In this document: positions 964 through 31,374 of the stretch, piece by piece
Layout of the letters: each line of letters opens with the position of its first letter
Position numbering within the stretch: the stretch's first letter is position 1
NCBI GenBank assembly: GCA_041659985.1
Contig: JBAZXE010000004.1
Location: 1-63,357 of the forward strand
Origin: Thermoplasmatota archaeon
GTDB lineage: Archaea; Thermoplasmatota; E2; JACPAO01; JAHFTW01
Reading direction: 5' to 3'
Length of the DNA stretch: 63,357 nucleotides
Program-made: the position numbers and the translations under genes
The notes under the pieces: generated by a model
What the model was told of the DNA's origin: nothing
Seen by the model: the letters and a program-made list of their open reading frames with translations, nothing else
Databases searched by the model: none

Positions 964-2313
964 TCAATGCTCGTGGCCTCCGCGTTCTTGCAGGATGCGC
1001 ATGGCTTCCGTGGCGCAGTCGGCCGAGGTTGCCATTGCGAACGCGTCAATGCCTTCGAAGCCATCGTACGGCATGCATGCCATGATTCCTCCGGGGTGGA
1101 CGTTGTCGTTGGCTGCGTACTGCGTCATGCCGTCGTGGATGATCCAGATGCCCGGGTTCTCCATTTTGATGACGAAGTCGTAACGTTCACCAGGAGCAAT
1201 AGCCAACGTGTCGGCCCGGTACGGCGAGTCGAGAAGGTAGCCGTCCTTCGCAATGACATTCATCGTGTGGCCATGGGGGTGCCAGGTGTGTAGAAGGTTG
1301 CCGGCATTGATGAGGCGGAACCGCACGGTTTCCCCTTCCCGGGCAGGGAAGACTGGCGTCTCGGGGAACGCCTTGCCGTTGACGAGGAACGTGTTGTACA
1401 GCGGATTGTAGAGCGGATGCGTCTCCGGCCACCATTGCCGCGGCGTCTGCTGGACGGGCGTGGCTCCATGCTGGTGCGCGCGCATGCAGCCGGCTGCGAC
1501 GAGGGCGTTGCTGCGTTCTGGCTCCGGAATATTGGCGAATGCGGTCACCATGGCGGGGCAATACGTGTCCTTGGCTGCTTGTGGCACGGTGGAATTCGCC
1601 GTCTGTCCCGCTTGGGAGACCGCACGGTTCTGGGCGAAGTTGTCCATGAGGAACCGGTAGTAGCATTCGGACTGCGCCTGGTAGTCGGCGCTGGATTCCT
1701 GGCCATTGCCGGCCACCGGTACGGGGTCGAGGTTGCCGTGGACGTGGCAGGAGTCGAATTCGTCCAGGAAGATGACGTAGTCGCGGTCGGCCTTGACGGG
1801 TGGATTCCGCTCCTCGACGATGAGCGCGCCGTACATGCCGAAGTCCGTGTGGTGCGCGGCGTCAACGTGGCAGTGGTACCAGTACGTTCCTGCCTTCAGG
1901 TTGGCGTACGTGTACGTGTGCTCTTGGCCGGATGCGATTGGGTACTGCGTCAGGTAGTCTACGCCGTCCTCCTCCCAGGGAATCAGGCCGCCGTGCAAAT
2001 GGATGGTGTGCGAGAGGGCGTTCGGGTTGGTGACGTGGATGATGACGGTGTCGCCTTCCTTCACGCGGATTTCCGGTCCCGGGATGGCCTGCGGGTCATC
2101 GGGGTTCGCCTTGAACGTGATGGCCACGGCGCGTTGCTCGGAGAGGTCGTTCCGCGGGTAGAGGGCCACGGTTCCGCTGGAGCCGGCTTCGACGAAGAGG
2201 TCGAACTCATGCGTCTGGGGTTTCCATGTGGCCGCGTCATCGCCTGAGAAGCAACCGCCCAGCGAGATGACGACGGCCATGACACCCAAAGCCATTGCGA
2301 AAGGACTGTTCAT
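964..2313 (-). CDS. Two-domain multicopper oxidase, lipoprotein (type-1 Cu site in N-terminal domain only; type-C-like)
   Basis: ORF 964..2358. Likely start is ATG 2313 (MNSPFAMALGVMAVVISLGGC lipobox). Domain 1 has HTIHLHG and WYHCHVDAAHHTDFGM. Domain 2 has HTWHPHGH but IWIIHDG where HCH is expected. ATG 2313..2311 overlaps TGA 2312..2310 of the upstream gene (ATGA). Confidence 0.85.
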   Translation of the reverse strand: MNSPFAMALGVMAVVISLGGCFSGDDAATWKPQTHEFDLFVEAGSSGTVALYPRNDLSEQRAVAITFKANPDDPQAIPGPEIRVKEGDTVIIHVTNPNALSHTIHLHGGLIPWEEDGVDYLTQYPIASGQEHTYTYANLKAGTYWYHCHVDAAHHTDFGMYGALIVEERNPPVKADRDYVIFLDEFDSCHVHGNLDPVPVAGNGQESSADYQAQSECYYRFLMDNFAQNRAVSQAGQTANSTVPQAAKDTYCPAMVTAFANIPEPERSNALVAAGCMRAHQHGATPVQQTPRQWWPETHPLYNPLYNTFLVNGKAFPETPVFPAREGETVRFRLINAGNLLHTWHPHGHTMNVIAKDGYLLDSPYRADTLAIAPGERYDFVIKMENPGIWIIHDGMTQYAANDNVHPGGIMACMPYDGFEGIDAFAMATSADCATEAMRILQERGGHEH

Positions 2314-3461
2314 GGAGTTCCGCCTCGCATCGAGATCCAATCTTGGTCGAACGCCCACGCGAGGTGTTCCTCGTCGTCCGCGGATGGCAAAGATTCGGCC
2401 AGGTAGGCTTCCATAGCGTCGGCGGGGAGCGTCTGTCCATGGGCCGTGACGCAGGAGTTGACGTGGTTTCCGACGCGGCGGTGGAATCGAAGGTCAGGCG
2501 CATACAATGGGACTTGGCCTTTGGCGCGGTGCCGATTCAGTTCCTCGAGGATGCTTTGGACCTCGGCTGCGTAGAGGCTGCGGTTGTGCTCGTTGAGGGC
2601 TTGCCGGTTGGCCTCAGCTGGGTTCGTTACCTCGTCGAAGCGGCCCTTCAGGCCCCATTCGTAGGCCCAAGCCGCGGTGCTGCTGCTTTCCTTGCCGAAG
2701 CAATCGTAGGCAGCGCTCACCCACCAGTTGACGTACTTCTGCAGGATGGGCGTCGGAATCACGCCGGCTTGCACAATCCGTTTCAGGCCGGTGACGCCGG
2801 TGCCGAGGTGAAAGGCCTCCTCCTTGAGCATCGGCCCCATGCTGGCCGCGATTGGCCAGAACGCGCATTGGTGTAGCATGGCCAATTGATACTTGCCGTC
2901 GCGGTCCATGAAGGCCGTGAAGCAGAACAGGTCCACCCAGTGGCGCACCTGGTCGTTGAAGGCCTTCAGCAAGCGCGTCCCTTTGGTGGCCCGCCTCTCG
3001 AGCAAACCGGCGGCCTCCTGCCGGCCGGCGTCGCCAAAGTTCGTGGTCAGGATGTGTGCCATCTGGAGCCCGTGCCGCATCTCCTCCGCGTTGATGCGAA
3101 CCAGGGACTTGGCATCGTAGTCGCTGGGCGCCACGTCCAGGAGATGGCGTTGCTGCTCGACGCTGGCGAATTCGGTGTCGCCCTGGACGCGGAGCAAGTC
3201 CAGCAACGCGTCCCGGATTGGTTGCTGGGGCACGTCGCGGACGCTGCGCCATTTCAGCTGTCCTTTGAAGGCGCCGAAGCCGATGGTCGGCGCGGCCGAC
3301 TCGTCGTACTTGGGAACCATCAGAAAATCGCCGAGGCGGTCTACTGGGTAGCGAATGTCGGCTTGCCAATCGGCCAGCAGTCCTTCCCAGTTGGCGAAGG
3401 CTTCGTAGCCAGCCATGCGGTTCATGCCCGTTCTCAGGATGTACGCCCCATAGCCGCCCAC
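2310..3461 (-). CDS. BoxB-like diiron oxygenase (benzoyl-CoA 2,3-epoxidase subunit B family)
   Basis: 383-aa ORF. Blocks QGDTEFASVEQQRHLL, RINAEEMRHG, FMDRDGKYQLAML, MLKEEAFHLGTG, ILQKYVNWW and GLKGRFDE match, from memory, the conserved blocks of BoxB of Azoarcus/Aromatoleum. The N-terminus is shorter than BoxB. Start is uncertain (GTG 3461, ATG 3425 or ATG 3416). Confidence 0.7.
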   Translation of the reverse strand: MGGYGAYILRTGMNRMAGYEAFANWEGLLADWQADIRYPVDRLGDFLMVPKYDESAAPTIGFGAFKGQLKWRSVRDVPQQPIRDALLDLLRVQGDTEFASVEQQRHLLDVAPSDYDAKSLVRINAEEMRHGLQMAHILTTNFGDAGRQEAAGLLERRATKGTRLLKAFNDQVRHWVDLFCFTAFMDRDGKYQLAMLHQCAFWPIAASMGPMLKEEAFHLGTGVTGLKRIVQAGVIPTPILQKYVNWWVSAAYDCFGKESSSTAAWAYEWGLKGRFDEVTNPAEANRQALNEHNRSLYAAEVQSILEELNRHRAKGQVPLYAPDLRFHRRVGNHVNSCVTAHGQTLPADAMEAYLAESLPSADDEEHLAWAFDQDWISMRGGTP

Positions 3462-3476
3462 CCCGACCTATCGGGG
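3461..3476. promoter_or_regulatory. 16-nt palindromic motif CCCCGACCTATCGGGG, copy A
   Basis: Arms CCCCGA and TCGGGG are inverted around CCTA. An identical 16-mer is at 5622..5637. Sits in the divergent intergenic region between the BoxB-like gene and the HTH_10 regulator. A partial inverted copy CCGATAGGT is at 3536..3544. Confidence 0.5.
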
Positions 3477-3551
3477 CCCCTCAGGGAGGAGTGATTCTCA
3501 TGCGTGGGAATCGAGGCAAAGTGTTTCCTCCCCAGCCGATAGGTAGTCGTC

Positions 3552-4245: not shown

Positions 4246-4770
4246 TCACTCGATAACGAGGGTGGCCTTCATGCCTTCTTCGAAGTGCCCTGGGACGAAG
4301 CAGCCAATTTCCCAGGTTCCCTTCAACTCGTCCGGGAACGTGGCGCGAATCCAGACCTGGCCGCCTGGTCCGATTTCGATTTCAGCCAAACCTCGTTCGG
4401 TGGCGACCTCCGTCTTCGCCGGTTGGTACACGAAGACGTCAGCAGCCACGTCTTCGAACAGGAGCTCCTCGAAGCCATGCGGCATGCCATCTTCGTTGGC
4501 GACGGTTCGACCGAACATGATCTCGTGCAAGACTGCGCCATCGTTTTGGACATGGATGCCGATGGTCTTTCCAGCATTGATGTGGAATGCGCCACCGTGG
4601 ACCCCGGACGCGTCTGCAAGGAAGTCGTCGCCCATGGTGATGAAGACGGTTTGTTCGACGCGGCTTGGCTGGGGGGCCAAGGTTGAATCGGCAGCATCTG
4701 GCGATTGCGTGCATCCGCTAAAGAAGGCCGTGAAAACGAGCGAGGCGACAACAAGGAGTTGCTTGGCCAT
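4246..4770 (-). CDS. Cupredoxin-fold type-1 copper protein, lipoprotein
   Basis: MAKQLLVVASLVFTAFFSGC lipobox. His in VLHEIMFG and C-terminal GCFVPGHFEEGM (Cys-x4-His-x4-Met) give a blue-copper ligand set. Confidence 0.85.
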   Translation of the reverse strand: MAKQLLVVASLVFTAFFSGCTQSPDAADSTLAPQPSRVEQTVFITMGDDFLADASGVHGGAFHINAGKTIGIHVQNDGAVLHEIMFGRTVANEDGMPHGFEELLFEDVAADVFVYQPAKTEVATERGLAEIEIGPGGQVWIRATFPDELKGTWEIGCFVPGHFEEGMKATLVIE

Positions 4771-4883: not shown

Positions 4884-5177
4884 TCACTTGGGTTTGTAGG
4901 TCCAAACCGAGTAAACCAGGACAGCGAAGCCGGCGAGGGTGAATAGGCCCTCAATGATGTGCGCTTGATCCAGGGAGAGGCCCAGCGCCTGGAAGGCCAA
5001 CCCCTCCGCAACTGCAGCGATGGTCATCAGGACGACCGCGATGAACAGGACCAAGATGCCACGGTTCGGTTGCCGCCGGTAGGCGCGCCACGTGATGCCA
5101 AGGAACACGGCGCCCAAGGCGACGGTGATAATCTTGATGATGCTTAGGAGCAGGATTGGGTCCGTTGGGTCCGCCAT
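4884..5177 (-). CDS. Small integral membrane protein (3 TM) co-transcribed with the ArsR-type regulator
   Basis: 97 aa and hydrophobic (ILLLSIIKIITVALGAVFLGI, ILVLFIAVVLMTIAAVA, LFTLAGFAVLVYSVW). Starts 3 nt after the stop of 5181..5537. Confidence 0.65.
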   Translation of the reverse strand: MADPTDPILLLSIIKIITVALGAVFLGITWRAYRRQPNRGILVLFIAVVLMTIAAVAEGLAFQALGLSLDQAHIIEGLFTLAGFAVLVYSVWTYKPK

Positions 5178-5180
5178 TGT

Positions 5181-5537
5181 CTAGCCTCGCAAGGAATTCC
5201 ACATGTGTTGGAGTCGTTCGTCCAGGGATGAATTGAGGTCCCACGTCACGCGCAAGCCGTCCGCGTCCATTTCAATTCGGCACGACTTGAGCGTCGAGCG
5301 GTACAGGTCGTATGGCTTGCCGTCGTGGGTCATGGCGCTGCGTTCGACGTAGAGCAGGCCGTCTTCCACGAGGCCATTGACGTGGCGGTAGGCCGACGGC
5401 AGGGGGATGCCGGTCTTGTCGCTCAGGTCCTTGACGGAGTGCGCTTTCAGGATACAGTGGGACATGATGTGCCGGGCGGACTCCGAGTTGAGGGCCGCCA
5501 CGACCTTCTCCTCCCGGACTTGGACCACCCGCACCAT
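5181..5537 (-). CDS. ArsR-family winged-helix transcriptional regulator
   Basis: 118 aa. HSVKDLSDKTGIPLPSAYRHVNGLVEDGLLYV is a typical wHTH recognition region. Confidence 0.8.
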   Translation of the reverse strand: MVRVVQVREEKVVAALNSESARHIMSHCILKAHSVKDLSDKTGIPLPSAYRHVNGLVEDGLLYVERSAMTHDGKPYDLYRSTLKSCRIEMDADGLRVTWDLNSSLDERLQHMWNSLRG

Positions 5538-5621
5538 GATGATTGGCGCTGCTCATCCTCTGAGATGAGAATAACCCATCCATGCGCTAGTCGTCCTGCT
5601 TAACTGAACCGTGACCCCGGG

Positions 5622-5637
5622 CCCCGACCTATCGGGG
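5622..5637. promoter_or_regulatory. 16-nt palindromic motif CCCCGACCTATCGGGG, copy B
   Basis: Identical to 3461..3476. Lies in the divergent region between arsR (start 5537) and the membrane protein (ATG 5674). A CTTAAC box is at 5599..5604. Confidence 0.5.
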
Positions 5638-5673
5638 CCGCACCTCAAGTCATGCAACGCTGAAGCAGCGGCA

Positions 5674-6471
5674 ATGCGGATGCTCCTCGCCGTGCTCGCC
5701 GCAGGAATCTTGGTTGGCCTTGCATCCCTGCTGGCCACCCGCGCTGCTACGGCGTGGGCTGGATTCTTGGCCGCGGCCCCCATCACGCCAACGCTGGCTG
5801 TCCTGGGCTCAACGGCGCTCCAGCCTCAGGATTTGCTGAATGGTCTCCCGATCGTTGCGGGTGCGACCGGGGCGATGGCCGTGGCCCTTCTTCTACAACG
5901 CAAGCGGTGGATGCCGACTCCAGCCCTCGTCATCCTTGTAGGCATTCCACTCCTATTGCCGATGGCCAAAAATGTTCCATCCGGCGTGCTGTTCATCGCG
6001 GTCGCCGCGGTCTGCCTCAGCCTCGACGTCGCGCTACCGATTGCGCCCCCGGGGGCCCGGGCCCGGCGATTTCCTTGGTACGCTTCGGGGATTCTGGGCG
6101 GCCTAGCCTTCGCGGCGATTCTGGCAGCCGCTTCTGCCGTGCCAGCCATCGCGCCTTTGGTCGCGATGTACCCGGCCCTCCTGGTGATCTCGTTGGCAGC
6201 CATTCGCTTCGGCGCAGGGCCCGATGCCGCCTTGCGAGTATGCCGTGCGGCCTTGGGAGCCAACGTCGCGGTGGCCACTTTCGCGGCCACACCCGCGCTA
6301 TTCCCCCGAGTTTCCTCGGCGATTTCACTTGTGCTGGCCTGGATGGTCTTTGCCCTCGTTGCCGGAGTGTGGCCCCTCCTGGTCCGTTCCCTTCGTATGC
6401 AAATCCCGCCCGCTGCGACTCCAAGCCCCGCACCATGCCCGAACCCACCCTGTGTCGATTCTCGCCTCTGA
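5674..6471 (+). CDS. Polytopic membrane protein, unknown function
   Basis: Ala/Leu-rich hydrophobic ORF (listed as 5611..6471). Start taken at ATG 5674 (MRMLLAVLAAGILVGL). Support is weaker than for its neighbours because several long alternative frames exist here. Confidence 0.55.
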   Translation: MRMLLAVLAAGILVGLASLLATRAATAWAGFLAAAPITPTLAVLGSTALQPQDLLNGLPIVAGATGAMAVALLLQRKRWMPTPALVILVGIPLLLPMAKNVPSGVLFIAVAAVCLSLDVALPIAPPGARARRFPWYASGILGGLAFAAILAAASAVPAIAPLVAMYPALLVISLAAIRFGAGPDAALRVCRAALGANVAVATFAATPALFPRVSSAISLVLAWMVFALVAGVWPLLVRSLRMQIPPAATPSPAPCPNPPCVDSRL

Positions 6472-6530
6472 GAATCACGCCCGAAAACCGGCCCCACGTT
6501 CTATGGATGACTCCTGCCTCACCGGAAACC

Positions 6531-6950
6531 ATGCCTCAACTCCGCGGCACCGCGACGCTGGCACTCGGACTGACTTTCCTCCTGCTTGCAGGCTGTTCCG
6601 CAGCCCCCGCCGAATCAGCGGAGGGGGGAGATTCCGATGACGCTTCCGACAGCCAACAAATCGTCATGCAGAACATGGCCTTCAGTCCGAAATCCATGAC
6701 CGTCCACGTTGGCGAAGCCGTCACCTGGGTCAACCAGGACTCGATGGGCCACACCGTCAGTGCCGACGACCCCGACCAGTGGGGCACCCCTGGATCTGGC
6801 GACAACTCGGCGGACTGGATGATGAAGGGCGACTCGTGGAGCCACACCTTCACCGAGCCGGGCACCTACCACTACTACTGCAAGCCGCACGCCTCCGGCT
6901 CCATGGGCAACCGCATGGGAATGGTCGGCACCGTTATCGTGGAGGCCTAG
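6531..6950 (+). CDS. Plastocyanin/halocyanin-like blue copper protein, lipoprotein
   Basis: C-terminal part of listed ORF 5754..6950. MPQLRGTATLALGLTFLLLAGC lipobox (alternative ATG 6507). Ligands GHTV ... YHYYCKPHASGSMGNRMGMVG (Cys, His, Met). Confidence 0.85.
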   Translation: MPQLRGTATLALGLTFLLLAGCSAAPAESAEGGDSDDASDSQQIVMQNMAFSPKSMTVHVGEAVTWVNQDSMGHTVSADDPDQWGTPGSGDNSADWMMKGDSWSHTFTEPGTYHYYCKPHASGSMGNRMGMVGTVIVEA

Positions 6951-6953
6951 ACG

Positions 6954-7961
6954 ATGGCTGAAGGCGCAAGCCAAAGTGGAGTCCCGGGCCGCCGCATGAT
7001 GGCCGTCGTGGCCGCCATTGCGTTCGCTGTCGGCGCCTTCGCGCCTGGCATCATCAAGGGAGTCGTCGAGGACGATTCCTGGAGCGCGCAGGCCGCAACT
7101 GGCCCCCAAGTGCGCGAATTCAACCTTGACATCAAGGCCGCCGACATCGACATGGGCGAAGGCACCGTTTGGCATGCTTGGACCTTCAACGGCACCGTCC
7201 CAGGCCCGACTCTGACGGCCAACGTCGGGGACATTATCCGCGTCACCGTCAAGAACAAGATGGACCTCATGCACAGCTTCCACACCCACCTCTCGCCCTA
7301 TGGGCTGGAGAGCGACGGGTCGCAGCTCAACATCATCACCGGCACCGGTTACATGGCCATGATTCACCCCGGTGACTCGTACACCTATGAGTTCCAGGCC
7401 ACCATCCCCGGCCTGTTCTACTACCACTGCCACAGCGCAGACGGCGACCACACCATCAGCGAACACATGGCGCAGGGCCTCTACGGTGCCATCATCATCA
7501 AGGGACCCGAAGAAGTCCCTGTTCGCGACGTGCCCCTGTTCATGGCAGAGCGCGGCTTCGATGCCAGCGATGGCGCCCCGTACTACATCATGAACGGCCA
7601 CGGATTGCCCGGCGGCGAACACAAGCTCGAAGAGATCTTCGCTGAAGGCGGCGTCGACGCCGTCGTCGCCCAGTTCGGTAAGACGCTGCCCGTCATCACA
7701 GGCAAAGTCGGCGAACCCGTCCGGCTCAGCGTCGTCAACATCGGCGATATGATCCACTCCTTCCACATGCACGCCATGACCGCGTACTACGTGGACCACG
7801 ACAAGGGCGACCCGGTCCCGGCCCAAGTCCTCGGCTTAATCCCCGGTGAAGCGGACCGCATCCTCATCACGCCCACCGAGCCCGGCGTCTGGCTCTTCCA
7901 CTGCCACGTCGTCAGCCACGCCGACGCAGGAATGATTGGCGTCTTCGTCGTGGAGGCCTAA
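6954..7961 (+). CDS. Two-domain multicopper oxidase with HCH/type-1 motifs in both domains (type-A-like), twin-arginine leader
   Basis: GRRMMAVVAAIAFAVGA leader. Domain 1 has HSFHTH and YYHCHSADGDHTISEHMAQGL. Domain 2 has HSFHMH and LFHCHVVSHADAGM. Starts 3 nt after the cupredoxin stop. Confidence 0.9.
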   Translation: MAEGASQSGVPGRRMMAVVAAIAFAVGAFAPGIIKGVVEDDSWSAQAATGPQVREFNLDIKAADIDMGEGTVWHAWTFNGTVPGPTLTANVGDIIRVTVKNKMDLMHSFHTHLSPYGLESDGSQLNIITGTGYMAMIHPGDSYTYEFQATIPGLFYYHCHSADGDHTISEHMAQGLYGAIIIKGPEEVPVRDVPLFMAERGFDASDGAPYYIMNGHGLPGGEHKLEEIFAEGGVDAVVAQFGKTLPVITGKVGEPVRLSVVNIGDMIHSFHMHAMTAYYVDHDKGDPVPAQVLGLIPGEADRILITPTEPGVWLFHCHVVSHADAGMIGVFVVEA

Positions 7962-8168
7962 GTGGCGGAGAACGTCGGCATCCGCGACGGGCAGGCCCGC
8001 ACAACCCTCGGGGTCGTCGCCTTGTTCGTGACTGGATTCCTGGTCGCCTACGCCCAAGCCTCCCCGTGGTCTTTGGTCCTCATGGGCCTGGCCCTCGTGC
8101 TCCTGGCATCTGGGACCTTGCGGTCATGTCCGCTGTACGGCCTCTTCGGCTACAGCACGTGCAAGTAG
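7962..8168 (+). CDS. DUF2892 (YgaP-like) small membrane protein
   Basis: 68 aa with a GTG start directly after the MCO stop. Two TM helices and the C-terminal SCPLYGLFGYSTC motif characteristic of DUF2892. Confidence 0.75.
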   Translation: MAENVGIRDGQARTTLGVVALFVTGFLVAYAQASPWSLVLMGLALVLLASGTLRSCPLYGLFGYSTCK

Positions 8169-8216
8169 GACCCGTCCCCCTTCCCCACTTCTCCTCTCTT
8201 TCCTGCTTGGTGTTCC

Positions 8217-9836
8217 ATGGTTGCCCGCCCCTTCGTCCTGCTTGCCGCCCTGACCGCCCTTCTGGCTGCTTCGCTGTCAGGCTGTTTCGGCGCCGAGTCG
8301 GAGGCCTTCGTGCCCGGAACGAATTACAAAGAAACCGGCCACATCGTCCACCTCAAGGCAACCGTCGTCGACCTTGCCGGCCAGGAAATCTATCCAGGCT
8401 TCAAGGCGAACCTCTGGGCGTACTGCTTCGCCCCCGTCGACCCCACCGACACGTACTCCGCCAACGCCATCGAAGCCCGCGAACCCCTCGCTGGCGACAT
8501 TGTCCCGGCGGGTTGGGAGCGTGGCCAATGTGGCGTCCCGGGGCCGACCCTGCGCGTCAAGCAGGGGGACCACGTGAAGGTCGAGTTCAGCAACTCCCAC
8601 TTCCACCCGCACACCATCCACTGGCACGGCCAATTCGTGCCCTGGGAATCGGACGGCGTACCCGGCGGCACACAGGACACCGTCGCTTCAGGCGGCTCGT
8701 TCACCTACGACTTCATCGCCAAACGCGCCGGAACCCTGTGGTACCACTGCCACGTCGACACCCAACTGCACGTCATGCAAGGCCTGTACGGCGTCATCAT
8801 CGTCGAACCCCAAGACGACCGCTGGGAACCCGAGGATGTCGACCACGATGAGACCATTGTCATCAGCAGTCTCCGCCGCGAACTGGTGGAAGCGATTCCA
8901 GGTGTCGGATTGCACAACCACCCCGCCGGCTGCGCCTCCGGGTTCGTGGGTTGCGAGAACCCCGCCGTCAAGGTCCAACCGGACGTGTTCCTGCTCAACG
9001 GCCACAGCCTTCCCTACACCTTGGATGACCCAGCCACGATGCTGCACCTGAAGGAAGGTGAACGCATGCGGCTCCGCTTCGTCAACGCCGGCACCACCGT
9101 GGAGGAGATGCACCCCCATGGCCACGACATGCTCGTGACGCACAAGGACGGCAACCCCATCCCGCCCAACCAGCGTCTCTGGGTGGACACTCTCATCATC
9201 GGCCCCGGCGAACGCTACGATGTCATCATCGAGGGCAACAATCCAGGTATCTGGGCGTTCCACACCCACGTCACCGACCATGAGACCAACTGCTGGAAGG
9301 CTCCCGGCGGCATGCACACCATGCTGGTTTACGACGGCTTCGAGGACCAGATGGGGGCCTTCCGGGGTGAAGCCCTGGCGACTTGCGCGTACCAATCCGG
9401 ACTCGTCCTGCCCGGCGACTTCGCGGACTCTGCGACGTTCGACTTCGGCGCCGTCACGCCCGCCGAACCCGTGGTGCAGTCGTGGGGCTTCCCCGTGACG
9501 TTGGCGTGCGCCGTGCGTAAACTCGACGCCCGCGCCCGCCTCGAGACCATGGCCACCACTGCAGCCTTCAACGACCTCCAGGTCACCATCCGGGACCCGG
9601 AAGGTGCCGATGCCGCTACCTTCGCTTTGGGCGAGGCCCGCAACGCGACTTACGCCTTGGAGGGCAGCGGATTGTCCGACCTGCGGCAAGGCAACTACAC
9701 GCTCGCGGTCACGGCCAACCAGGCATTGGAAGCCACGGTGGAGCTCTCGGTTGCCATCGACTACTACGAGACCTTCGAACAGAGCCGGACCGCCCACCTC
9801 GTCAACAAGGTGGGGGGATGTCCGGGATACACATGA
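8217..9836 (+). CDS. Two-domain multicopper oxidase with C-terminal extension, lipoprotein (type-C-like; paralog of 964..2313)
   Basis: LLAASLSGC lipobox. Domain 1 has HTIHWHG and WYHCHVDTQLHVMQGL. Domain 2 has MHPHGH and FHTHV (Cys replaced by Thr). An extra C-terminal region of about 150 aa follows. Confidence 0.9.
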   Translation: MVARPFVLLAALTALLAASLSGCFGAESEAFVPGTNYKETGHIVHLKATVVDLAGQEIYPGFKANLWAYCFAPVDPTDTYSANAIEAREPLAGDIVPAGWERGQCGVPGPTLRVKQGDHVKVEFSNSHFHPHTIHWHGQFVPWESDGVPGGTQDTVASGGSFTYDFIAKRAGTLWYHCHVDTQLHVMQGLYGVIIVEPQDDRWEPEDVDHDETIVISSLRRELVEAIPGVGLHNHPAGCASGFVGCENPAVKVQPDVFLLNGHSLPYTLDDPATMLHLKEGERMRLRFVNAGTTVEEMHPHGHDMLVTHKDGNPIPPNQRLWVDTLIIGPGERYDVIIEGNNPGIWAFHTHVTDHETNCWKAPGGMHTMLVYDGFEDQMGAFRGEALATCAYQSGLVLPGDFADSATFDFGAVTPAEPVVQSWGFPVTLACAVRKLDARARLETMATTAAFNDLQVTIRDPEGADAATFALGEARNATYALEGSGLSDLRQGNYTLAVTANQALEATVELSVAIDYYETFEQSRTAHLVNKVGGCPGYT

Positions 9837-9851
9837 CTGGGGAGAGACTCG

Positions 9852-10526
9852 ATGGACGACGACCCTGCAGCATCCGCTAATCCCCGAAACCCGGATTCCT
9901 TGACTATCCGGGAGCGACGCGCAAGGAACGCGAAGGCGCAGGCACGAAAGCAACTCCCCAAAGAATTGGTGCGCAGGTCGATGATACCAGCAATCGTCAT
10001 CTTGATTCTGGGCGCCATTGCTCTCGGACTGAACTTCAAGTCCACTGGCACGGAGGACTGCCCCGGCCACTGGCATGCTGCATTCGCCATCTTCGTCAAC
10101 GATGCACGGTTGAACTACTCAGAGCCCGAGCAGCACCCGGTCGCCTACGGGGCGGCCGGCCACGACCACCACCTCCATGGCGACGACGGCATCTACCATT
10201 TCCACCCACCCGTCGAACGCTGCATTCCCGTCCGCGCCATGCTCGAGCGGCTCGACGTAGGCATCGACGGAGATTCCTTGCTTGTCGGATCGACGCACGG
10301 CCCACTGGCCGGAACCTACAACGCAACCGCAGACGCAACGCTGCAGATTTGGCATCAGCCCTACGGCGGCGCTTGGGAGATTGCGGCTTGGCCCAAAATC
10401 AAGGAACTCCAGCTGGGCGACGGCGATCGCATCCTGTTCACGTACGGTGACCAGAATCCAGCGACCCTTGAGGCCCAGAAGAATTCCATGAAGGACTTGG
10501 GGACCTACGACCCCGGAGATGTCTAG
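9852..10526 (+). CDS. Membrane-anchored histidine-cluster protein, putative metal binding
   Basis: 224 aa. Basic N-tail, one TM (MIPAIVILILGAIALGL), then CPGHWHAAFAIFVND ... GHDHHLHGDDGIYHFHPP. Confidence 0.7.
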   Translation: MDDDPAASANPRNPDSLTIRERRARNAKAQARKQLPKELVRRSMIPAIVILILGAIALGLNFKSTGTEDCPGHWHAAFAIFVNDARLNYSEPEQHPVAYGAAGHDHHLHGDDGIYHFHPPVERCIPVRAMLERLDVGIDGDSLLVGSTHGPLAGTYNATADATLQIWHQPYGGAWEIAAWPKIKELQLGDGDRILFTYGDQNPATLEAQKNSMKDLGTYDPGDV

Positions 10527-10983
10527 CGAGCGTGAGACAATGAAGGACGAAACCCGACGCATGTTCCGCCGCCGCCCCGACCCGGTGCGCGTCATTGTGG
10601 CCAAGGCCCGCATCGACGGCGGCGTCGCCATCGAGCCCAACGCGCCGAAGCAGGTCAAAGTCGCTCCCGGCCAAGCCTTGGAGCTCGCCTTCCCCTACAG
10701 TTTGCGGGAAGCCAGCCCAGACCGCGAGGCCTACTCGCTTCGGCTCTCATCCCACATCGGCGTCATGGCCGTTCCCCCTGACGAGAAACGGTGGGGCGAC
10801 CGCTGGGGCTGGCCAGAGGCCCTCGACGGATTCCTACTGCAACGCTACCACCTTGAGCGCGGCCGGCACGAGTTGGCGTACACGACCGAAGCCAGCTACC
10901 GCGTCACGCCGTGGAGGGGCAATGGCCCAGGCATTCCTCAAACCAAGCGGCTTGACGGAACCATTGAGGTGATCTGCAAGTGA
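10519..10983 (+). CDS. Hypothetical protein in the copper operon
   Basis: 154 aa. Its start overlaps the upstream stop by 8 nt and its stop overlaps the next start by 4 nt (GTGA). I recognise no motif. Confidence 0.55.
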   Translation: MSSERETMKDETRRMFRRRPDPVRVIVAKARIDGGVAIEPNAPKQVKVAPGQALELAFPYSLREASPDREAYSLRLSSHIGVMAVPPDEKRWGDRWGWPEALDGFLLQRYHLERGRHELAYTTEASYRVTPWRGNGPGIPQTKRLDGTIEVICK

Positions 10984-11261
10984 GCCTCATCCCAATCCTG
11001 ATTGCCTGCACCATGGGCCTCGCCGCGGGCGTCGGCGTCATCGGAAACGAAGTCACCCACGGAGCATGGTCAGAATCCATGGGCCTGGGCCACCACCACC
11101 TAGCCGACTACGGCGGATACCATTGCGCCGCCCACGAATCACAGGCGCACATGCAACACATGCACAACGGAACGTTCACCGATCACCAGCATTGTCCGGG
11201 TGGAGTGCACATGCATGGCGATGGCCACCGTCACAACCACGGCGGTATGCACGATGCGTAA
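10980..11261 (+). CDS. Membrane-anchored His/Met/Cys-rich small protein (cassette copy 1)
   Basis: 93 aa, N-terminal TM, then NEVTHG..MGLGHHHLADYGGYHCAAH..QHMHNGT..HQHCPGGVHMH. Paralog of 25410..25694. Confidence 0.7.
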   Translation: MSLIPILIACTMGLAAGVGVIGNEVTHGAWSESMGLGHHHLADYGGYHCAAHESQAHMQHMHNGTFTDHQHCPGGVHMHGDGHRHNHGGMHDA

Positions 11262-11433
11262 GCATCTGCCAATCCTCTGGATGTGCAGCGGATTCTTGGC
11301 GCTGATGCTCACCCTCAGCTTCACCGGAAACGGAACCCTTGGAACCGGAGTTCCCGTCTGGTTATCCGTGACGCTGGCGCTAACGGCGGTGGCCGTAGGC
11401 ATTTGGGCAGCGGCGCGAGCTACCCATGCCTAG
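11254..11433 (+). CDS. Small two-TM membrane protein (cassette copy 1)
   Basis: In-frame ATG 11254 within listed ORF 11200..11433 (MRKHLPILWMCSGFLALMLTLSFTGNGT...). 8-nt overlap (ATGCGTAA) with the upstream gene. Shares the SFTGNGT and IWAA motifs with 25687..25917. Confidence 0.6.
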   Translation: MRKHLPILWMCSGFLALMLTLSFTGNGTLGTGVPVWLSVTLALTAVAVGIWAAARATHA

Positions 11434-11557: not shown

Positions 11558-11702
11558 GGAACCCGTACGGCATGACGCCTATACCTTCCATGAGGTTCGG
11601 TAGCTCTTGCCCCCCAATGCGCCCACAAAGCGGCCGCCAATAGTGGGAGATCCTCGGCATGTTGTAGGCATATTGTCAGCAACGGCGCCGGGACCCACTA
11701 CA
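11558..11702 (+). repeat. 145-bp imperfect direct repeat, copy 1
   Basis: Hand alignment with 16394..16538 gives about 114/145 identical positions without gaps. Near-perfect cores are CGGCATGA(C/G)GCCTATACCTTCCATGAGGTTCGGTAGC and GTTGTAGGCATATTGTCAGCAACGGCGCC. Confidence 0.8.
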
Positions 11703-11752
11703 TGGACCACGGCCTGGAGACCACAAAATATCGGTGTTTGTGGGCGTCCGGC

Positions 11753-12019: not shown

Positions 12020-13441
12020 CTAGCGGAACGTTGCTCCTTCGATGCGCAGAACGCCCCGGAACGTCGAGACGCCACTGTCGATGTGGACCCCATGAAGGCC
12101 TGCGGCCACGTCGCACTTCGCGTCCAGCAGCCAGGTGCCACTGGTGGAGACTCCGATGAGGGCAACGAACGTTCCCTTGGCGTCGCACTTGCCTGGTCCC
12201 TCCAGCACGAGTTCGCGACTGCCGCCGTTGTAGAGGCCTAGCCAGACTTTCAGTGACCCGCCCTTGGATGCCACGGTGAAGTCATACCCGCTGCCGGGCG
12301 TCACGATGATTTCGCGTTCGTCCCTTTGCCCCGCGCTAGACCCTTCGGCCATGGTGGTTCGTTGGAGGCCAGGCGAGAAGGGGACGGGGTGCATGGGCTC
12401 ATGGCGGTACGCCGTGGCCGTGATGGTGTAGGTGGCGCCCTCTACGGTGCGGGCGGGGCTGCTCGGGCCCGTCACCAAGAAGCCCCATAGGCTCCGCTTG
12501 GCGTATGGACCGTCGCCGTTGCCTTCCACCGCGATGCGGTAGATGCGTTCCGAGTCGCTGGATTCGGCGGGCTCCACAATGCGCAGGGCACGTGTGTCGC
12601 CGGCATGGTACTGGAACTGTAGGCCGTTGGGCAGTTCCTGTGATGTCACGACGCGGATCTCCACGTAAGCAGCATCGGTGGGAACAATGGCGCCGTCCAT
12701 GGGCACGTGCTCGACGGGGCAGTTGAAGGCCATCATCGGGAATGGCTGGCACCCACCAAAGGGCTCGAGCCAAAGGTCGTAGATTGCCTGATCCTCTTCG
12801 ATCAAGAGGATTTCGTTGGTTCCGTTCCATTGGTCCGGGTGTCCGGGGTACAATGGAATGGGGCGTCCGCGTTCCGCCTCCACAATCAATCGCATCGTGC
12901 CTTTGAATCGCTCGAAGCCGTCCTCGCCGGTGCCAAGCACAACGAACCTCCAACTGGAGACGACTTGGTGGGGAAGGTCGTTGTCGACGTCTTCGGCGGG
13001 CAGCTCGACTTTGCCGTCCTGGAAGGCGACAGGGTCCGAGAGGTTGGTCGAGGCGGCCGTGCTGTAGCGGACGGACAGGTCGCCGACGCGGTCACCGGGG
13101 GCGGCTGCGTACTCGAGAGCCAAGTGGACCTGGGCGGTGCCTTGCGGGACAACGCTTCCGTCGGGCGGGAGGAATTCTGCCATCCAGACCATGTTGTCGC
13201 CATTGATGGTCAGTTCGTGCCGGCCTTGCCAGGTTTCATCGAGGATGCCAATGCGGTCTCGTCCGCCCCAGTAGTCATGGACGTGCGGGCGGGCCAACGC
13301 GTTGCTCTCGTTGAGGTACGTGTAGTCGCCAGGAGAGGTCACCAGAATTGGATCGTCCGCAGCGGCCTGTTCGTCGGACGGGCCAGCGCAGCCCGCAAGG
13401 AGCAGGATTGCCAAAGCGGCCAGGGTGCGGGTGGGATTCAT
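12020..13441 (-). CDS. Secreted lipoprotein, unknown function
   Basis: MNPTRTLAALAILLLAGC lipobox, 473 aa. Its ATG 13441..13439 overlaps the TGA 13440..13438 of the upstream regulator gene (ATGA). Confidence 0.75.
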   Translation of the reverse strand: MNPTRTLAALAILLLAGCAGPSDEQAAADDPILVTSPGDYTYLNESNALARPHVHDYWGGRDRIGILDETWQGRHELTINGDNMVWMAEFLPPDGSVVPQGTAQVHLALEYAAAPGDRVGDLSVRYSTAASTNLSDPVAFQDGKVELPAEDVDNDLPHQVVSSWRFVVLGTGEDGFERFKGTMRLIVEAERGRPIPLYPGHPDQWNGTNEILLIEEDQAIYDLWLEPFGGCQPFPMMAFNCPVEHVPMDGAIVPTDAAYVEIRVVTSQELPNGLQFQYHAGDTRALRIVEPAESSDSERIYRIAVEGNGDGPYAKRSLWGFLVTGPSSPARTVEGATYTITATAYRHEPMHPVPFSPGLQRTTMAEGSSAGQRDEREIIVTPGSGYDFTVASKGGSLKVWLGLYNGGSRELVLEGPGKCDAKGTFVALIGVSTSGTWLLDAKCDVAAGLHGVHIDSGVSTFRGVLRIEGATFR

Positions 13442-15450
13442 GCTAGGCCATCCATTGCCCGGTCCTTCTTAGGGCGCTTGGCGGACCCTTCGAGAGTTGC
13501 GTTCGCTTCGTGCGCGAGGCGGCGGCCGAATTCCGTGAGGCGGAACCGCCGGGCCTTGCCATCGCGCTCGCTGGCCAGGAGGCCAGCCTTCCAAAGGCGT
13601 TGGGCATGGTGGTGGACAGTGGCGTATCCGAGGCCCGTGGCTGCCATCAGGCCCTTGAAGGAAGGAGCGCCGTGGACCTCTACGGCCAGCAGGACCGCCT
13701 GAGCTCCACGGGATTTCAGGACGGGCACGGCCTCTTGGAGGCGCTCGTCGAGGCTGCCGCGCGGGAAGTAGCAGTGGTAGGCGCCAATCTGTCTCTCGCC
13801 CAGGTAGCCGGCTCCGCTGAGCCGGTTCAGGTGGTGGATGGCAGTGTTGCTTGAGATGCCGAGACGCTGGGCGACTTGGCTCGGATGGATTCCCGGTTCT
13901 TCGTGGACCAGGTCATGCACACGGCGCCGCAAGGGGTGGTCGAGCATGCGGCTAGCTTCGATGCGGCTGAAGAGGGGGATGGCGACTTTGAGAGAAGGCC
14001 AGGCCACCGCAAGGAACGCCGCGATAAGGCTGACAATCCCAACCGTCACCGCAGCAGGCGAGCTGGGTTCTGGGAATGGTGCGCGCCTGTCGGGGACCTG
14101 GGCCGCAGGCTCAAATGGACCATCGGAGAGGAGGTCAGGCCTCGCCTCACCGAGTTCAAGCTGCTCGACGGCAAGAAGCCCGCCGTCGCCAGCCACGCGC
14201 AGGACAGCCGACGAGGCCAGGGGGCGTTGCCAGCGCTCGGTGGACGGCCTTGCAGCCCCGAACGTTTCGGCAAAGACCTGGACCTCGGATCGGATGGCGG
14301 TGCAGGAGATCGTAGTGCAGGCAATGGAGAAACCCCAGGCCGTCGGCTCCTTGCCGGTTGCTGCCGCGAAGGCCAAGTTAAGGCCGCCCAGCGCCGGCAG
14401 CTTGGTAGGCGCCAAGGTCAAGGGTGGAAGCACGGAGGGGGGTGGGTCAATGGGATAGTCAAGCGCGTCTGGCCCCGCCACTCTCAGCGAAGACGGCAAG
14501 GCGTCGAGGGCGGCCGGCTCGCGGATGACGACGCGTTCCACGCGATTGGGGCCGGCCGCCACGACCAGGTGCCACGTCTCTTGCATGAGGCCGGCGGCAT
14601 CTGTGGCCGTGTAGAGGCGGGCATAGGCGACGTAGGCGTCTGGCCGCTCGAGGAGGTCGCCTGCAGCGGAGTCGGCTGGTGCGCTTCGCAATGCGTCCAA
14701 TGCCTCGACGATACCGAAAGCACCGGGGCCATCACCAGTTGGGCCCGGTACGCCGCGCGGTTCAAGCGTCAAGCGGGGCAGGGCGGCCACGGCGGCCGGG
14801 GCGGACCAGTCGGCGACGCTGCGACCAGACTCGACCAGTTCCAGGCGGTGGACGGTTTGGCCGGGGCCGGCAGATCCCAGGAGGTCGGAGGTCGGCCATG
14901 TGACTACGGTGGGCCAAGGGGTCCCGGGTTGGATGGCGGAGGCGCAGGCCGGAACTTTGCCTTGCGCCAGGAGGCTGAAACCGCATGGCAAGGCGGCCTG
15001 GCCCCACTCAAGCCGGCTCCATGACATGGGCTGCGACGAATCAGCGGCGCCTGGAAGGCCGGGTTCGCCCTGTGACATCGTAGCAGCACCCGCCTTCCCC
15101 ACTGCGACGACGACGTCGTTTTCGGTTACCCAGTACGTCCACGCGACTTGCCCGCGCCCATCCAGGGTCTCGTGCTCGAAGGAGAACACGATGGGCGTCG
15201 CAAACGCTGGCAAGCCGTGACGGTCCGCAACCGTGGCAGGCGCCCCGGCGTCGACGTTGAGAGACTCCATGACGGCCTGGCCTGAAATGCCCGTGGCGAG
15301 TTCCATCGTCATGACCCGGTACTCGCCGTGGTCGCCGAATGCCAAGGCCGGCGCGGCCGGCTCCTCAGCGCTTGCCGTGATGGCGTGCATGCCAAGGCCC
15401 AGCCCCAGCACCAGCAGAAACGCCACAATGCCCCTCCTGGTGGCCGCCAA
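13438..15450 (-). CDS. Single-pass membrane protein: large extracytoplasmic domain plus two cytoplasmic winged-helix DNA-binding domains
   Basis: 670 aa. Signal-like N-terminus, an outside region of about 470 aa, TM VTVGIVSLIAAFLAVAW, then HPSQVAQRLGISSNTAIHHLNRLSGAGYL and FKGLMAATGLGYATVHHHAQRLWKAGLL wHTH units. TTG start 15450 (alternative GTG 15426). Confidence 0.8.
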   Translation of the reverse strand: MAATRRGIVAFLLVLGLGLGMHAITASAEEPAAPALAFGDHGEYRVMTMELATGISGQAVMESLNVDAGAPATVADRHGLPAFATPIVFSFEHETLDGRGQVAWTYWVTENDVVVAVGKAGAATMSQGEPGLPGAADSSQPMSWSRLEWGQAALPCGFSLLAQGKVPACASAIQPGTPWPTVVTWPTSDLLGSAGPGQTVHRLELVESGRSVADWSAPAAVAALPRLTLEPRGVPGPTGDGPGAFGIVEALDALRSAPADSAAGDLLERPDAYVAYARLYTATDAAGLMQETWHLVVAAGPNRVERVVIREPAALDALPSSLRVAGPDALDYPIDPPPSVLPPLTLAPTKLPALGGLNLAFAAATGKEPTAWGFSIACTTISCTAIRSEVQVFAETFGAARPSTERWQRPLASSAVLRVAGDGGLLAVEQLELGEARPDLLSDGPFEPAAQVPDRRAPFPEPSSPAAVTVGIVSLIAAFLAVAWPSLKVAIPLFSRIEASRMLDHPLRRRVHDLVHEEPGIHPSQVAQRLGISSNTAIHHLNRLSGAGYLGERQIGAYHCYFPRGSLDERLQEAVPVLKSRGAQAVLLAVEVHGAPSFKGLMAATGLGYATVHHHAQRLWKAGLLASERDGKARRFRLTEFGRRLAHEANATLEGSAKRPKKDRAMDGLA

Positions 15451-16393: not shown

Positions 16394-16538
16394 GGAACCG
16401 GTACGGCATGAGGCCTATACCTTCCATGAGGTTCGGTAGCGATTGCCCCCAAAGAGCCCACAAAGTCGGCCGCCAACCTGTTGGTGTTCCACGCGTGTTG
16501 TAGGCATATTGTCAGCAACGGCGCCTACACCCACTACA
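16394..16538 (+). repeat. 145-bp imperfect direct repeat, copy 2
   Basis: See 11558..11702. Same orientation, 4.8 kb downstream. Confidence 0.8.
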
Positions 16539-16565
16539 AGGTTCGTTAGGCGGACCGGGCAGACC

Positions 16566-18167: not shown

Positions 18168-19415
18168 CTACGGCGCCATCGGAGGGGTCTCCTCCTTGGG
18201 CCCCATCTCGTCGCCGGGGACTTGCGGGAGCCGATGCGTGGCGGTGGGTCCGAAGTACAATTCGAACATCCACTCCAATTTTCCGGACAAGGCGCTCCAG
18301 TACATGCGGTTGAAGGCCTTCTTCATGGCGTACTTGATGATGGTCGGCTTGTTTTCTTCGGGCGGCTGCTCGTACGTGGCGGAGACGAACAGCAGGCGGT
18401 GATCGCCGACCTCCATGGGGCAGTTGATGCGACCATTGTAGGCCCAATCGCCGAAGTCCCGGCCGAGGTCTGCCAAGACGTTCTTGGCCACGACGAGAGA
18501 CTGCAGGTGCGCCACGACGCCGGATTTGCTGATGGGGATGTTCGTGCAGTCCCCCAAGGCATACGTTCCGGGCTGCCCCGTGACCCGCATCGTCTGCTTG
18601 TCGGTGGGGACCCAGCCCTCCTTGTCTCCGAGGCCGGAGTCGGCGATGAGGCGCGCGCCGCGGTGGGGCGGCACGACGATGGCCAAGTCGCAGGCGACCT
18701 CATCGCCTTCCAGGGACACGAGGGCGCCGGGCTTGGCTTCCCCGATACTGAAGAAGGTCCCCAACTCGATGCCGAGTTTCTTGAAGCGCTCCTCGACTTG
18801 GTGCGAGACCTTCTCGGCGGGGTAGGCTCTGGGATACGGGGTCAGGAGCGTGATGCGGGTCTTGTCGCGCAACCCCCGCTTGCGCAGCAGCTCATCCAGC
18901 AGGAAACAGGCCTCGTTGGGACTGGGCGGGCACTTGTAGGGGAACTCCGCGATGGCCACCGCGATGTGGCCGCCGCGGAAGTCCTGCAACCGCTCCCAGA
19001 TGCGCTGGGCCACCTTGGGGCCAAGGTGGAAGGACAATGTGTGCTCGGCCAAACCAGGGATGAGGTCCTGCCGAGCCTCCGCGCCGGTGGCAAGGATGAG
19101 GTGGTCGTAGGCGAGCGTTTGGCCGTCCGTCAAGACGACGGTGCGTTCGGTCGTGTCGATGCGCGCGGCCCCGGAATCGATGAACCGCACCTGCTTCTCC
19201 AACAAGGGGCGCTCCGCGTGAAGGAACCGCGCGGGGGAAACGCCGCGGAACGCGACGTCGAGATTGCCCGGCTGGAAGCAGTGCTGGGCCGAGTCGCCCA
19301 CGACGGTCAAGGTGATGGCGTCGCTGGCTAGGTCCTGCTTGAGTTCTCGCGCCAGGAGGTTGGCGGTCATCGTCCCGCCGGTGCCGGCACCAATCACGAC
19401 GATGCGATGGCCCAT
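18168..19415 (-). CDS. sqr: Sulfide:quinone oxidoreductase-like flavoprotein
   Basis: IVVIGAGTGGT FAD fold, FPYKCPPSPNE and LGDCTNIP cysteine motifs, 415 aa. Follows tusA by 1 nt. Confidence 0.8.
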   Translation of the reverse strand: MGHRIVVIGAGTGGTMTANLLARELKQDLASDAITLTVVGDSAQHCFQPGNLDVAFRGVSPARFLHAERPLLEKQVRFIDSGAARIDTTERTVVLTDGQTLAYDHLILATGAEARQDLIPGLAEHTLSFHLGPKVAQRIWERLQDFRGGHIAVAIAEFPYKCPPSPNEACFLLDELLRKRGLRDKTRITLLTPYPRAYPAEKVSHQVEERFKKLGIELGTFFSIGEAKPGALVSLEGDEVACDLAIVVPPHRGARLIADSGLGDKEGWVPTDKQTMRVTGQPGTYALGDCTNIPISKSGVVAHLQSLVVAKNVLADLGRDFGDWAYNGRINCPMEVGDHRLLFVSATYEQPPEENKPTIIKYAMKKAFNRMYWSALSGKLEWMFELYFGPTATHRLPQVPGDEMGPKEETPPMAP

Positions 19416-19416
19416 G

Positions 19417-19647
19417 CTACGCCTTCTTGGTGACTTTGACGAGGATCTTGAGCACGTTGCCGTCTTGGTTCACGGAGACGAGCTGGTTGCCGGTCTTTTT
19501 GCACCAAGCCGTGACGTCAGGCTTGGCTGCGGGATCGGTGGCCCACAGCTCGAGCTCGTCGCCTTGCTTGGCGGAGCGATAGGCCTTGAACAGGTCAGTC
19601 AGCGGTCCGGGGCAGAAAGCGCCGCGGCTGTCAATCGTGGTTGGCAT
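19417..19647 (-). CDS. tusA: TusA/SirA-family sulfur carrier
   Basis: 76 aa with the GAFCPGPL (CPxP) active-site motif. Confidence 0.85.
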   Translation of the reverse strand: MPTTIDSRGAFCPGPLTDLFKAYRSAKQGDELELWATDPAAKPDVTAWCKKTGNQLVSVNQDGNVLKILVKVTKKA

Positions 19648-19658
19648 CGTGAGTCACC

Positions 19659-20159: not shown

Positions 20160-20188
20160 TGAATCACAAGTCATTGTGCAAGCCGACA

Positions 20189-20317: not shown

Positions 20318-20341
20318 TAGCGCTTCGGGGCCTATGGAGGC

Positions 20342-31348: not shown

Positions 31349-31374
31349 CGAGCCTTGACTTGGAGAGGGCAAGG

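Follow-up and report, generated by a model that had tools for sequence, protein, structure and literature searches.

The eight-gene array

A group of genes for predicted copper proteins lies near one end of a 63,357-nucleotide stretch of contig JBAZXE010000004.1 (assembly GCA_041659985.1), from a Thermoplasmatota archaeon; the whole of this stretch is called the window below. Its G+C content is about 65%, and its closest public relatives are Thermoplasmatota metagenome-assembled genomes. At positions 6531-11433, eight open reading frames, named g1 to g8 here, follow one another on the plus strand with gaps of 3, 0, 48, and 15 nt and then overlaps of 8, 4, and 8 nt. A sequence-only reading of this DNA had taken them for a single outer-face operon that pairs two architecturally different two-domain multicopper oxidases (MCOs). 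The reading frames, their spacing, and the copper-ligand motifs are as it claimed, apart from the export of g6. Comparison with related loci points to three separately shuffled modules on one strand, and not to a fixed operon. The eight genes are as follows:

6531-6950, plus strand: g1, lipoprotein cupredoxin of plastocyanin type (PF00127, E 1.1e-16; lipobox LAGC)
6954-7961, plus strand: g2, predicted type A two-domain MCO (Cu-oxidase_3 and Cu-oxidase_2 domains, ligand set)
7962-8168, plus strand: g3, DUF2892/YgaP-like protein with two transmembrane (TM) segments (PF11127, E 7.8e-13)
8217-9836, plus strand: g4, predicted lipoprotein type C two-domain MCO (lipobox LSGC; alignments with 2zwn and 3g5w)
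9852-10526, plus strand: g5, anchored five-histidine protein (one TM anchor, His cluster)
10519-10983, plus strand: g6, rare soluble protein (no export signal, no hydrophobic segment)
10980-11261, plus strand: g7, N-terminally anchored His/Cys-rich protein (17 His in 93 amino acids)
11254-11433, plus strand: g8, two-TM protein (TGNGT motif; always found after g7)

What kind of oxidase does g2 encode? The protein has 335 amino acids, with a Cu-oxidase_3 domain at residues 64-186, a Cu-oxidase_2 domain at 240-334, and no third domain. Alignments to three solved two-domain MCOs, 7rab (E 6e-30), 3gdc, and 3g5w, span its full length. In these three only domain 1 carries the His-Cys-His (HCH) motif, whereas both domains of g2 do (H158-C159-H160 and H316-C317-H318). 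The type 1 (T1) copper ligands are H107, C159, and H171 with axial L176 in domain 1, and H268, C317, and H322 with axial M327 in domain 2; four HxH motifs supply the trinuclear histidines (110, 112, 158, 160, 271, 273, 316, and 318). In a family alignment of 121 sequences, g2 and its 120 best homologues, each T1 and trinuclear ligand was kept in 119-121, and the motifs picked out by the sequence-only reading fall at true ligand positions. H166, the alternative candidate for the T1 histidine of domain 1, is unconserved in this family alignment. Two full T1 sites and eight trinuclear histidines are what defines the type A class (PMC13151041, PMC3192119), and g2 is classified accordingly as a type A two-domain MCO. 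It is presumably a homotrimer with its trinuclear clusters at the subunit interfaces.

The g2 family comprises 572 matches at E <= 1e-10, drawn from Thermoplasmatota, Dehalococcoidia, Actinomycetota, and Deinococcus; an exact-sequence look-up of the window protein itself returned no record. Both HCH motifs are retained in 117 of the top 120 homologues. A cupredoxin with T1 ligands is fused to the C-terminus in 18 of the 120, and these gene fusions back a link by which electrons would pass from cupredoxin to MCO. The g2 leader has the twin-arginine pair R13R14 followed by a hydrophobic stretch, as had been noted, and this leader is conserved among the closest relatives only.

The cupredoxin of g1 has the T1 ligands H74, C117, H120, and M125. 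Its score against PF00127 (61.5 bits, gathering score 21.2) places it among plastocyanin/azurin-type proteins, while it falls under the equivalog cut-offs that are specific for plastocyanin, amicyanin, and halocyanin. The two genes g1 and g2 (6531-7961) share one reading frame, with a stop codon and one further codon between them, and the pair is collinear with the cupredoxin-NirK fusions of relatives described below. The assignment of g3 to DUF2892 is borne out by 48.8 bits against PF11127 (gathering score 25.3); its C-terminal motif is CP...C.

The second oxidase, g4, belongs to a different class. Its best solved relatives are the metagenomic two-domain laccase mgLAC (2zwn, E 7e-56) and the blue copper oxidase of Nitrosomonas europaea (3g5w, E 5e-49). 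A T1 site is present in domain 1 only (H132, C178, H185, axial L190); in domain 2 the T1 histidine and cysteine are replaced by E296 and T350, so that its motif reads H349-T-H351 and HCH is confined to domain 1, as the sequence-only reading had it. All eight trinuclear histidines are in place (H135, H137, H177, H179, H299, H301, H349, and H351). A C-terminal extension of about 160 amino acids is common to archaeal homologues and absent from bacterial ones, and g4 is best described as a predicted type C two-domain MCO that carries an additional domain at its C-terminus. Full-length homologues were found in the related loci L007-L014, L025, and L026.

Other identities were considered for both oxidases and rejected. 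Against the NirK model TIGR02376 (cut-off 296.3 bits), g2 scores 84.8 and g4 75.5 bits, and the trinuclear histidine set also speaks against NirK. Against copper_res_A, the model for CopA/PcoA (cut-off 479 bits), the scores are 99 bits for g2 and 121 for g4, and against CueO (cut-off 525 bits) they are 55 and 66; both proteins, moreover, have two domains. A tRNA-Gly of 94 nt that ARAGORN places on the minus strand at 9093-9186, inside the g4 reading frame, is most likely a false positive, and an Rfam search of the window and the downstream spacer gave no RNA match.

None of the products of g5-g8 matches a family in Pfam or NCBIfam. For g5, a TM-anchored protein with a histidine cluster, six close relatives are known beyond the window copy, and a profile search gathered 334 representative clusters. 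Every sequence in a sample of 28 members has H73, H75, H107, H109, and H116; among 153 aligned members these five are retained in at least 96%, and the cysteine pair C70 and C124 in about 75%. The family has no Pfam match and no PDB sequence match, and the three NCBIfam matches among the 28 members are isolated and unrelated. The C-terminal half bears a weak likeness to transcobalamin-beta/DUF4430. An AlphaFold2 model of g5 has a mean predicted local distance difference test (pLDDT) score of 72.5, and a Foldseek search with it against the PDB found nothing better than E 0.29.

The product of g6 has neither a hydrophobic segment nor a lipobox and is probably cytoplasmic; the claim that every product carries a lipobox, a twin-arginine leader, or a TM anchor fails at this gene. 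Its start may be at 10540 and not at the annotated position. Database searches yielded only three homologues and a pattern scan of GTDB genomes none; gene neighbourhoods contain homologues in L018, L025, L027, L028, and L003. The anchor and the histidine richness of g7 and the two TM segments of g8 were read correctly from the start. The conserved motif of g7 is NE.THG...G.GH.H...HC..H; a seven-sequence alignment was too variable for scanning, and a six-sequence version found one locus. In L018, L022, L025, L027, L028, and L029, g7-like genes have an MCO, NirK, or Cu-ATPase gene as a neighbour. A paralogous g7-g8 pair occurs in the window itself at 25410-25917 on the plus strand (44% identity for g7, 41% for g8), about 400 nt after an OsmC-family gene (24547-24993). 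Composition and neighbourhood suggest that g5 and g7 may bind copper.

Gene order in related loci

Is the eight-gene array a conserved unit? The arrangements found around homologues are listed here, with identities to the window proteins in brackets:

L001 (g2 97%): regulator pair (winged-helix and DUF7521 genes, see below), g1-g2-g3, then a lipoprotein gene homologous to the one at 4246-4770 of the window; no g0d (an upstream membrane-protein gene, see below), no g4-g8
L026 (g2 94%): g0d-g1-g2-g3-g4, then unrelated genes
L027 (g2 90%): g1-g2-g3, a gene for a 445-amino-acid protein, an NMO-family gene, and g6-, g7-, and g8-like genes
L028 (g2 86%): g1-g2, a gene for a 495-amino-acid protein, a g6-like gene, two membrane genes, g7/g8-like genes, an ATP-binding cassette (ABC) transporter, and after it a P1B copper ATPase with an Lrp/TRASH regulator
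L003 (g2 86%): g2 alone, with a DUF7521 gene upstream and ctaA/ctaB and a g6 homologue downstream
L022 (g2 75%): regulator pair, g2, a gene for a 162-amino-acid protein, and g7- and g8-like genes
L025 (g4 75%): g4-g6-g7-g8, without g5
L018: g5-g8 at 38-84% identity, adjoining a nos (N2O reductase) cluster
L007-L014 (g4 44-59%): a gene for a PKD-like lipoprotein as the only constant neighbour, beside RNA-polymerase subunit genes

The eight genes do not form one conserved unit: the array is broken up differently in seven related arrangements. This broken order suggests that three modules are inherited separately. The core would be g1-g2-g3, with g1 before the type A MCO in L001, L026, L027, and L028 and g3 after it in L001, L026, and L027; a candidate operator, palindrome A, stands in front and a regulator pair adjoins it. 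The slot after g3 appears to be variable, taken by a type C MCO in the window and in its 94% relative L026, and by NirK in L027 and L028. The third module, g(5)-6-7-8, is a putative accessory block that recurs beside MCO, NirK, and Cu-ATPase genes; in L029 a g7-like gene abuts a P1B ATPase. The tail genes g5-g8 look more like copper-handling helpers than like parts of a redox chain, and in relatives they lie near Cu-exporting P1B ATPases.

The 445-amino-acid protein of L027 (1484-2821), the 495-amino-acid protein of L028 (3417-4904), and a 474-amino-acid protein of L001 (5337-6761) are NirK enzymes with an N-terminally fused cupredoxin, scoring 351, 334, and 326 bits, respectively, on TIGR02376 (cut-off 296). 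In L027 and L028 the NirK gene takes the slot after the core, and in L001 it is divergent and lies beyond the regulator pair. The presence of cupredoxin-fused NirK above the TIGR02376 cut-off suggests nitrite reduction in this clade of Thermoplasmatota. The pairing of two different two-domain copper enzymes, which the sequence-only reading had stressed, does recur in relatives, but the partner there is usually NirK and not a second oxidase.

A DNA alignment shows that in L018 the g0d start codon runs directly, and in frame, into the final 62 codons of g4. The scar at 9739-9800 of L018, compared with 5621-5677 and 9654 onward of the window, corresponds to a clean deletion of 3976 bp, and L018 appears to be derived by deletion from a window-like array.

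The upstream island and its palindromes

The boundaries first given, 6531-11433, are too narrow, and the island reaches upstream to about position 960. The genes and DNA motifs of this part are:

964-2358, minus strand: MCO3, lipoprotein two-domain MCO, type-C-like (Cu-oxidase_3, 1.5e-28; Cu-oxidase_2, 1.8e-25)
2310-3461, minus strand: ferritin-like PaaA_PaaC protein (PF05138, E 2.2e-10), directly upstream of MCO3 and co-oriented with it
3462-3475: palindrome B, exact, CCCGACCTATCGGG, at the 5' end of the PaaA-like gene
3494-3511: palindrome A with one mismatch, ATTCTCATGCGTGGGAAT, 32 nt upstream of the PaaA-like/MCO3 unit
4246-4770, minus strand: cupredoxin-like lipoprotein (lipobox FSGC; C-x4-H-x4-M motif; no Pfam match)
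4884-5177, minus strand: DUF7521 three-TM protein (PF24365, E 2.9e-15)
5181-5537, minus strand: winged helix-turn-helix (wHTH) protein of 118 amino acids, candidate island regulator (HTH_IclR, HTH_20, and MarR_2 matches)
5555-5572: palindrome A with one mismatch, 17 nt upstream of the regulator gene
5623-5636: palindrome B, exact, CCCGACCTATCGGG, at the 5' end of g0d, upstream of it
5674-6471, plus strand: g0d, polytopic membrane protein (multiple hydrophobic segments; no Pfam match)
6458-6475: palindrome A, exact, ATTCTCGCCTCTGAGAAT, 55 nt upstream of g1, candidate operator

MCO3 is 42-45% identical to g4 in both domains, and its real start is probably the ATG at 2313. It has a Cys-containing linker of about 100 amino acids and an HCH motif in domain 1. 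The last motif of domain 2 reads HDG and not HxH, and therefore MCO3 may lack one trinuclear histidine.

Several of the other upstream genes keep their positions in relatives. Homologues of the wHTH protein stand in the same divergent position in L001 (85% identity) and L022 (56%), and a DUF7521 gene is also found upstream of the type A MCO in L001, L003, and L022. The lipoprotein of 4246-4770 has a homologue in L001 that is 68% identical and directly follows the DUF2892 gene. For g0d, there is a 53% identical homologue in the same position in L026, and the gene is absent from L001.

Palindrome A has the consensus ATTCTC-N6-GAGAAT. Allowing at most one mismatch, there are three sites in the window against 0.04 expected, and all three lie at promoter positions of copper-protein or regulator genes. 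Outside the window, exact copies occur in front of the type A MCO locus in five other lineages; they precede g1 or the MCO in L001, L003-L006, and L026, and L022 has one at the regulator gene. Palindrome B has, besides its two exact sites, a one-mismatch copy at 871-884, and L018 and L026 contain it too; its role could be that of an operator or of a hairpin in the 5' untranslated region. Both palindromes are candidate operators.

Possible functions and the rest of the window

How does the locus compare with systems already described? The type A class, defined from sequence by Nakamura et al. and noted in haloarchaea, shares with g2 the two cupredoxin domains, both T1 sites, and the eight histidines; in the literature searched, no biochemical or structural study of a type A enzyme was found, and the class is known from sequences only. 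Here it appears in Thermoplasmatota together with a dedicated cupredoxin, a DUF2892 protein, and a candidate operator. The type C enzymes mgLAC and N. europaea blue copper oxidase resemble g4 over both domains and in having the T1 site in domain 1, whereas g4 differs in being a lipoprotein, in its Cys-containing linker, in the C-terminal extension, and in the loss of the vestigial domain-2 T1 histidine (E296).

A parallel in gene order is the ncgABC-nirK cluster of N. europaea, in which the genes for a two-domain MCO, small electron carriers, and NirK lie together (PMC10781756). L027 and L028 likewise have cupredoxin, MCO, and NirK in one row, and L015-L017 are similar, with an MCO, a putative CxxCH protein, and a second two-domain copper protein, although membership of the cluster type is itself putative there. 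The carriers in L027 and L028, however, are cupredoxins and not cytochromes c, and the MCO is type A and not type C. In the window, which has no NirK and so does not belong to this cluster type, a type C MCO stands in place of NirK, and g5-g8 and DUF2892 are without counterpart in N. europaea. A further parallel comes from within the phylum. Thermoplasmatota have plastocyanin-like carriers in place of cytochrome c, and in Ca. Angelarchaeales there is an enrichment of these carriers, of NirK, and of two-domain cupredoxins, encoded together with respiratory genes (PMC9038741). In L003, a g2 homologue lies 1.5 kb from ctaA/ctaB. The two-domain proteins of Angelarchaeales are described as having two T1 sites and no type 2 or type 3 (T2/T3) copper, whereas g2 has the full trinuclear set.

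The reading that we favour, and to which we give an even chance, is that a cupredoxin supplies electrons to an oxidase on the outer face, next to an exchangeable second copper enzyme and a set of copper-handling helpers. In this scheme g1 would pass electrons to the T1 coppers of g2. Each subunit would have two of them, each connected through its His-Cys-His triad to a trinuclear cluster at the interface, and the trimer would reduce O2 to water at the outer face of the membrane. The variable slot would take alternative terminal enzymes of cupredoxin fold, type C MCO or NirK. Outside the cell, g5 with its five histidines and the His/Cys-rich g7 would probably bind copper for Sec-exported apo-enzymes, and the soluble g6 and the two-TM g8 would complete the accessory set. 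The wHTH/DUF7521 pair probably controls the island through palindrome A, and the closely spaced genes of the array may be co-transcribed. Support for the scheme comes from the cupredoxin fusions, the adjacency of g1 and g2, the presence of NirK in the slot, the ncgABC-nirK precedent, and the plastocyanin-like carriers of Thermoplasmatota. Of the dedicated outer-face oxidase and electron-transfer module proposed by the sequence-only reading, the link from cupredoxin to MCO is backed by the fusions, while the tail genes look less like redox parts of it. A bolder version, which we consider unlikely, would extend the scheme to a copper-only branch of electron transport at the outer face in this clade: g1 would feed the type A MCO as a non-haem terminal oxidase and also its NirK or type C partner, the wHTH/DUF7521 pair would act as a new switch at palindrome A, and the enzymes would be metallated by two new families of extracytoplasmic chaperones, g5 and g7-g8.

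Several observations weigh against the favoured scheme, and a copper-homeostasis or resistance island is a serious alternative with a real minority share of the probability. On that account the MCOs would be outer-face cuprous oxidases like CueO/PcoA, the cupredoxin and the His-rich proteins would buffer or shuttle copper, and the wHTH/DUF7521 pair would sense it. A motif scan of the window found no quinol:cupredoxin oxidoreductase or other source of electrons for g1. The order of the genes varies widely among relatives, as it does in accessory or resistance islands; the island has a local regulator of its own, and in L018 much of it has been lost by deletion. The His-rich helpers, with 17 histidines in g7 and five invariant ones in g5, and the Cu-ATPases nearby would suit detoxification equally well. 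Besides the ATPase that a g7-like gene adjoins in L029, the one in L028 (TIGR01511, 618 bits) lies with its Lrp/TRASH regulator about 3 kb from a g7-like gene; Met/His-rich SHOCT-like proteins, so named from their sequence, are encoded near the locus in L001 and L018; and the contig of the g5 homologue in L021 also carries CopC-CopD. The more distant homologues of g2 occur singly, surrounded by housekeeping genes (L024), or next to a gene for cation efflux (L023), a pattern typical of stress genes. The g5 model is of moderate confidence and has no fold match, and the g6 model, at pLDDT 47.6, is unusable. Like the cop, pco, and cue systems, the locus combines an extracytoplasmic MCO with metal-binding helpers, but the resemblance stops short of membership. 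Absence from the window is judged here by a six-frame motif scan of its whole length and not by full annotation: signatures of P-type ATPases, haem-copper oxidase subunit I, and CuA were not found, nor was a credible CxxCH or CopZ-type MxCxxC motif in a plausible coding frame, which agrees with the earlier statement that CopA-type ATPase, CopZ, cytochrome, and haem-copper oxidase genes are missing. There is no three-domain Met-rich CopA/PcoA oxidase, and no pcoB/C/D or copRS family is represented in g1-g8, so the earlier view that this is not a standard cop/pco operon holds. Neither MCO has the Met-rich insert of the CueO/PcoA kind, both score far below the copper_res_A and CueO cut-offs, and the cupredoxin fusions and the NirK in the same slot point to electron transfer between proteins.

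The MCOs could also be independent substrate oxidases, laccase-like on phenolics or acting on Fe(II) or Mn(II), that are adjacent without a joint function. This is distinctly improbable. It draws on the laccase 2zwn as best solved relative of g4, on the g4 homologues of other Thermoplasmatota that pair only with a PKD-like lipoprotein by housekeeping genes, on the label 'manganese oxidase' that some g2 homologues carry by automatic naming at the Joint Genome Institute (JGI), and on more distant g2 homologues that stand alone. Adjacency of g1-g2-g3 recurs, however, as does that of g2, a second two-domain copper enzyme, and g6-g8; cupredoxin fusions exist, a candidate operator is shared by several island genes, and no substrate-site features were identified. 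Barely credible, in our view, is a role of g2 in nitrogen-oxide metabolism as proposed for NcgA, in which it would remove NO or O2 around NirK and the module in the window would be a leftover after NirK had been replaced. NirK does adjoin g2 homologues in L001, L027, and L028, a nos cluster lies beside g5-g8 in L018, and ncgABC-nirK is a precedent, but NirK is missing from the window and also from the locus in L026, L003, and L022, and g2 has a full oxidase-type trinuclear set and not a NirK-type T2 site.

Type A and type C two-domain MCOs, cupredoxins, DUF2892 proteins, and clusters of MCO with NirK were already known. Apparently undescribed are the combination of a type A MCO with its own cupredoxin and a DUF2892 protein, the exchange of NirK and type C MCO, the candidate operator, and the g5, g7, and g8 families. 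Type A MCOs have been proposed as a "missing link" between single cupredoxins, NirK, laccases, and ceruloplasmin, and the locus offers a natural test case for them, with a probable partner in g1, a candidate regulator and operator, and a set of loci in which NirK and type C MCO replace each other. It also flags three unannotated families of predicted extracytoplasmic or membrane proteins (g5, g7, and g8); as they travel with copper enzymes and Cu-ATPases, they may bear on the copper loading of exported archaeal enzymes.

Downstream of the array, an intergenic repeat of about 150 nt occurs at 11558-11705 and again at 16394-16541, with 86% identity between the copies; it matches nothing in Rfam, and its predicted folding is no better than that of shuffled sequences. 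Between them, at 12020-15450 on the minus strand, lie genes for a 473-amino-acid lipoprotein and then a 670-amino-acid protein, which has a large domain on the outside, two HTH domains (HVO_0163-like) on the cytoplasmic side, one TM segment, and a signal sequence. The latter protein may be a trans-membrane sensor-regulator, and HTH proteins like it are encoded near g5 or g2 homologues in L019, L021, and L023. A sulfide-oxidation-like cluster at 18168-22475 encodes an SQR-like flavoprotein, TusA, a DsrE-like protein, a metallo-beta-lactamase-rhodanese fusion, thioredoxin, and rhodanese. Farther along, at 31360-32769, there is an ammonium transporter gene (PF00909, E 1e-116).

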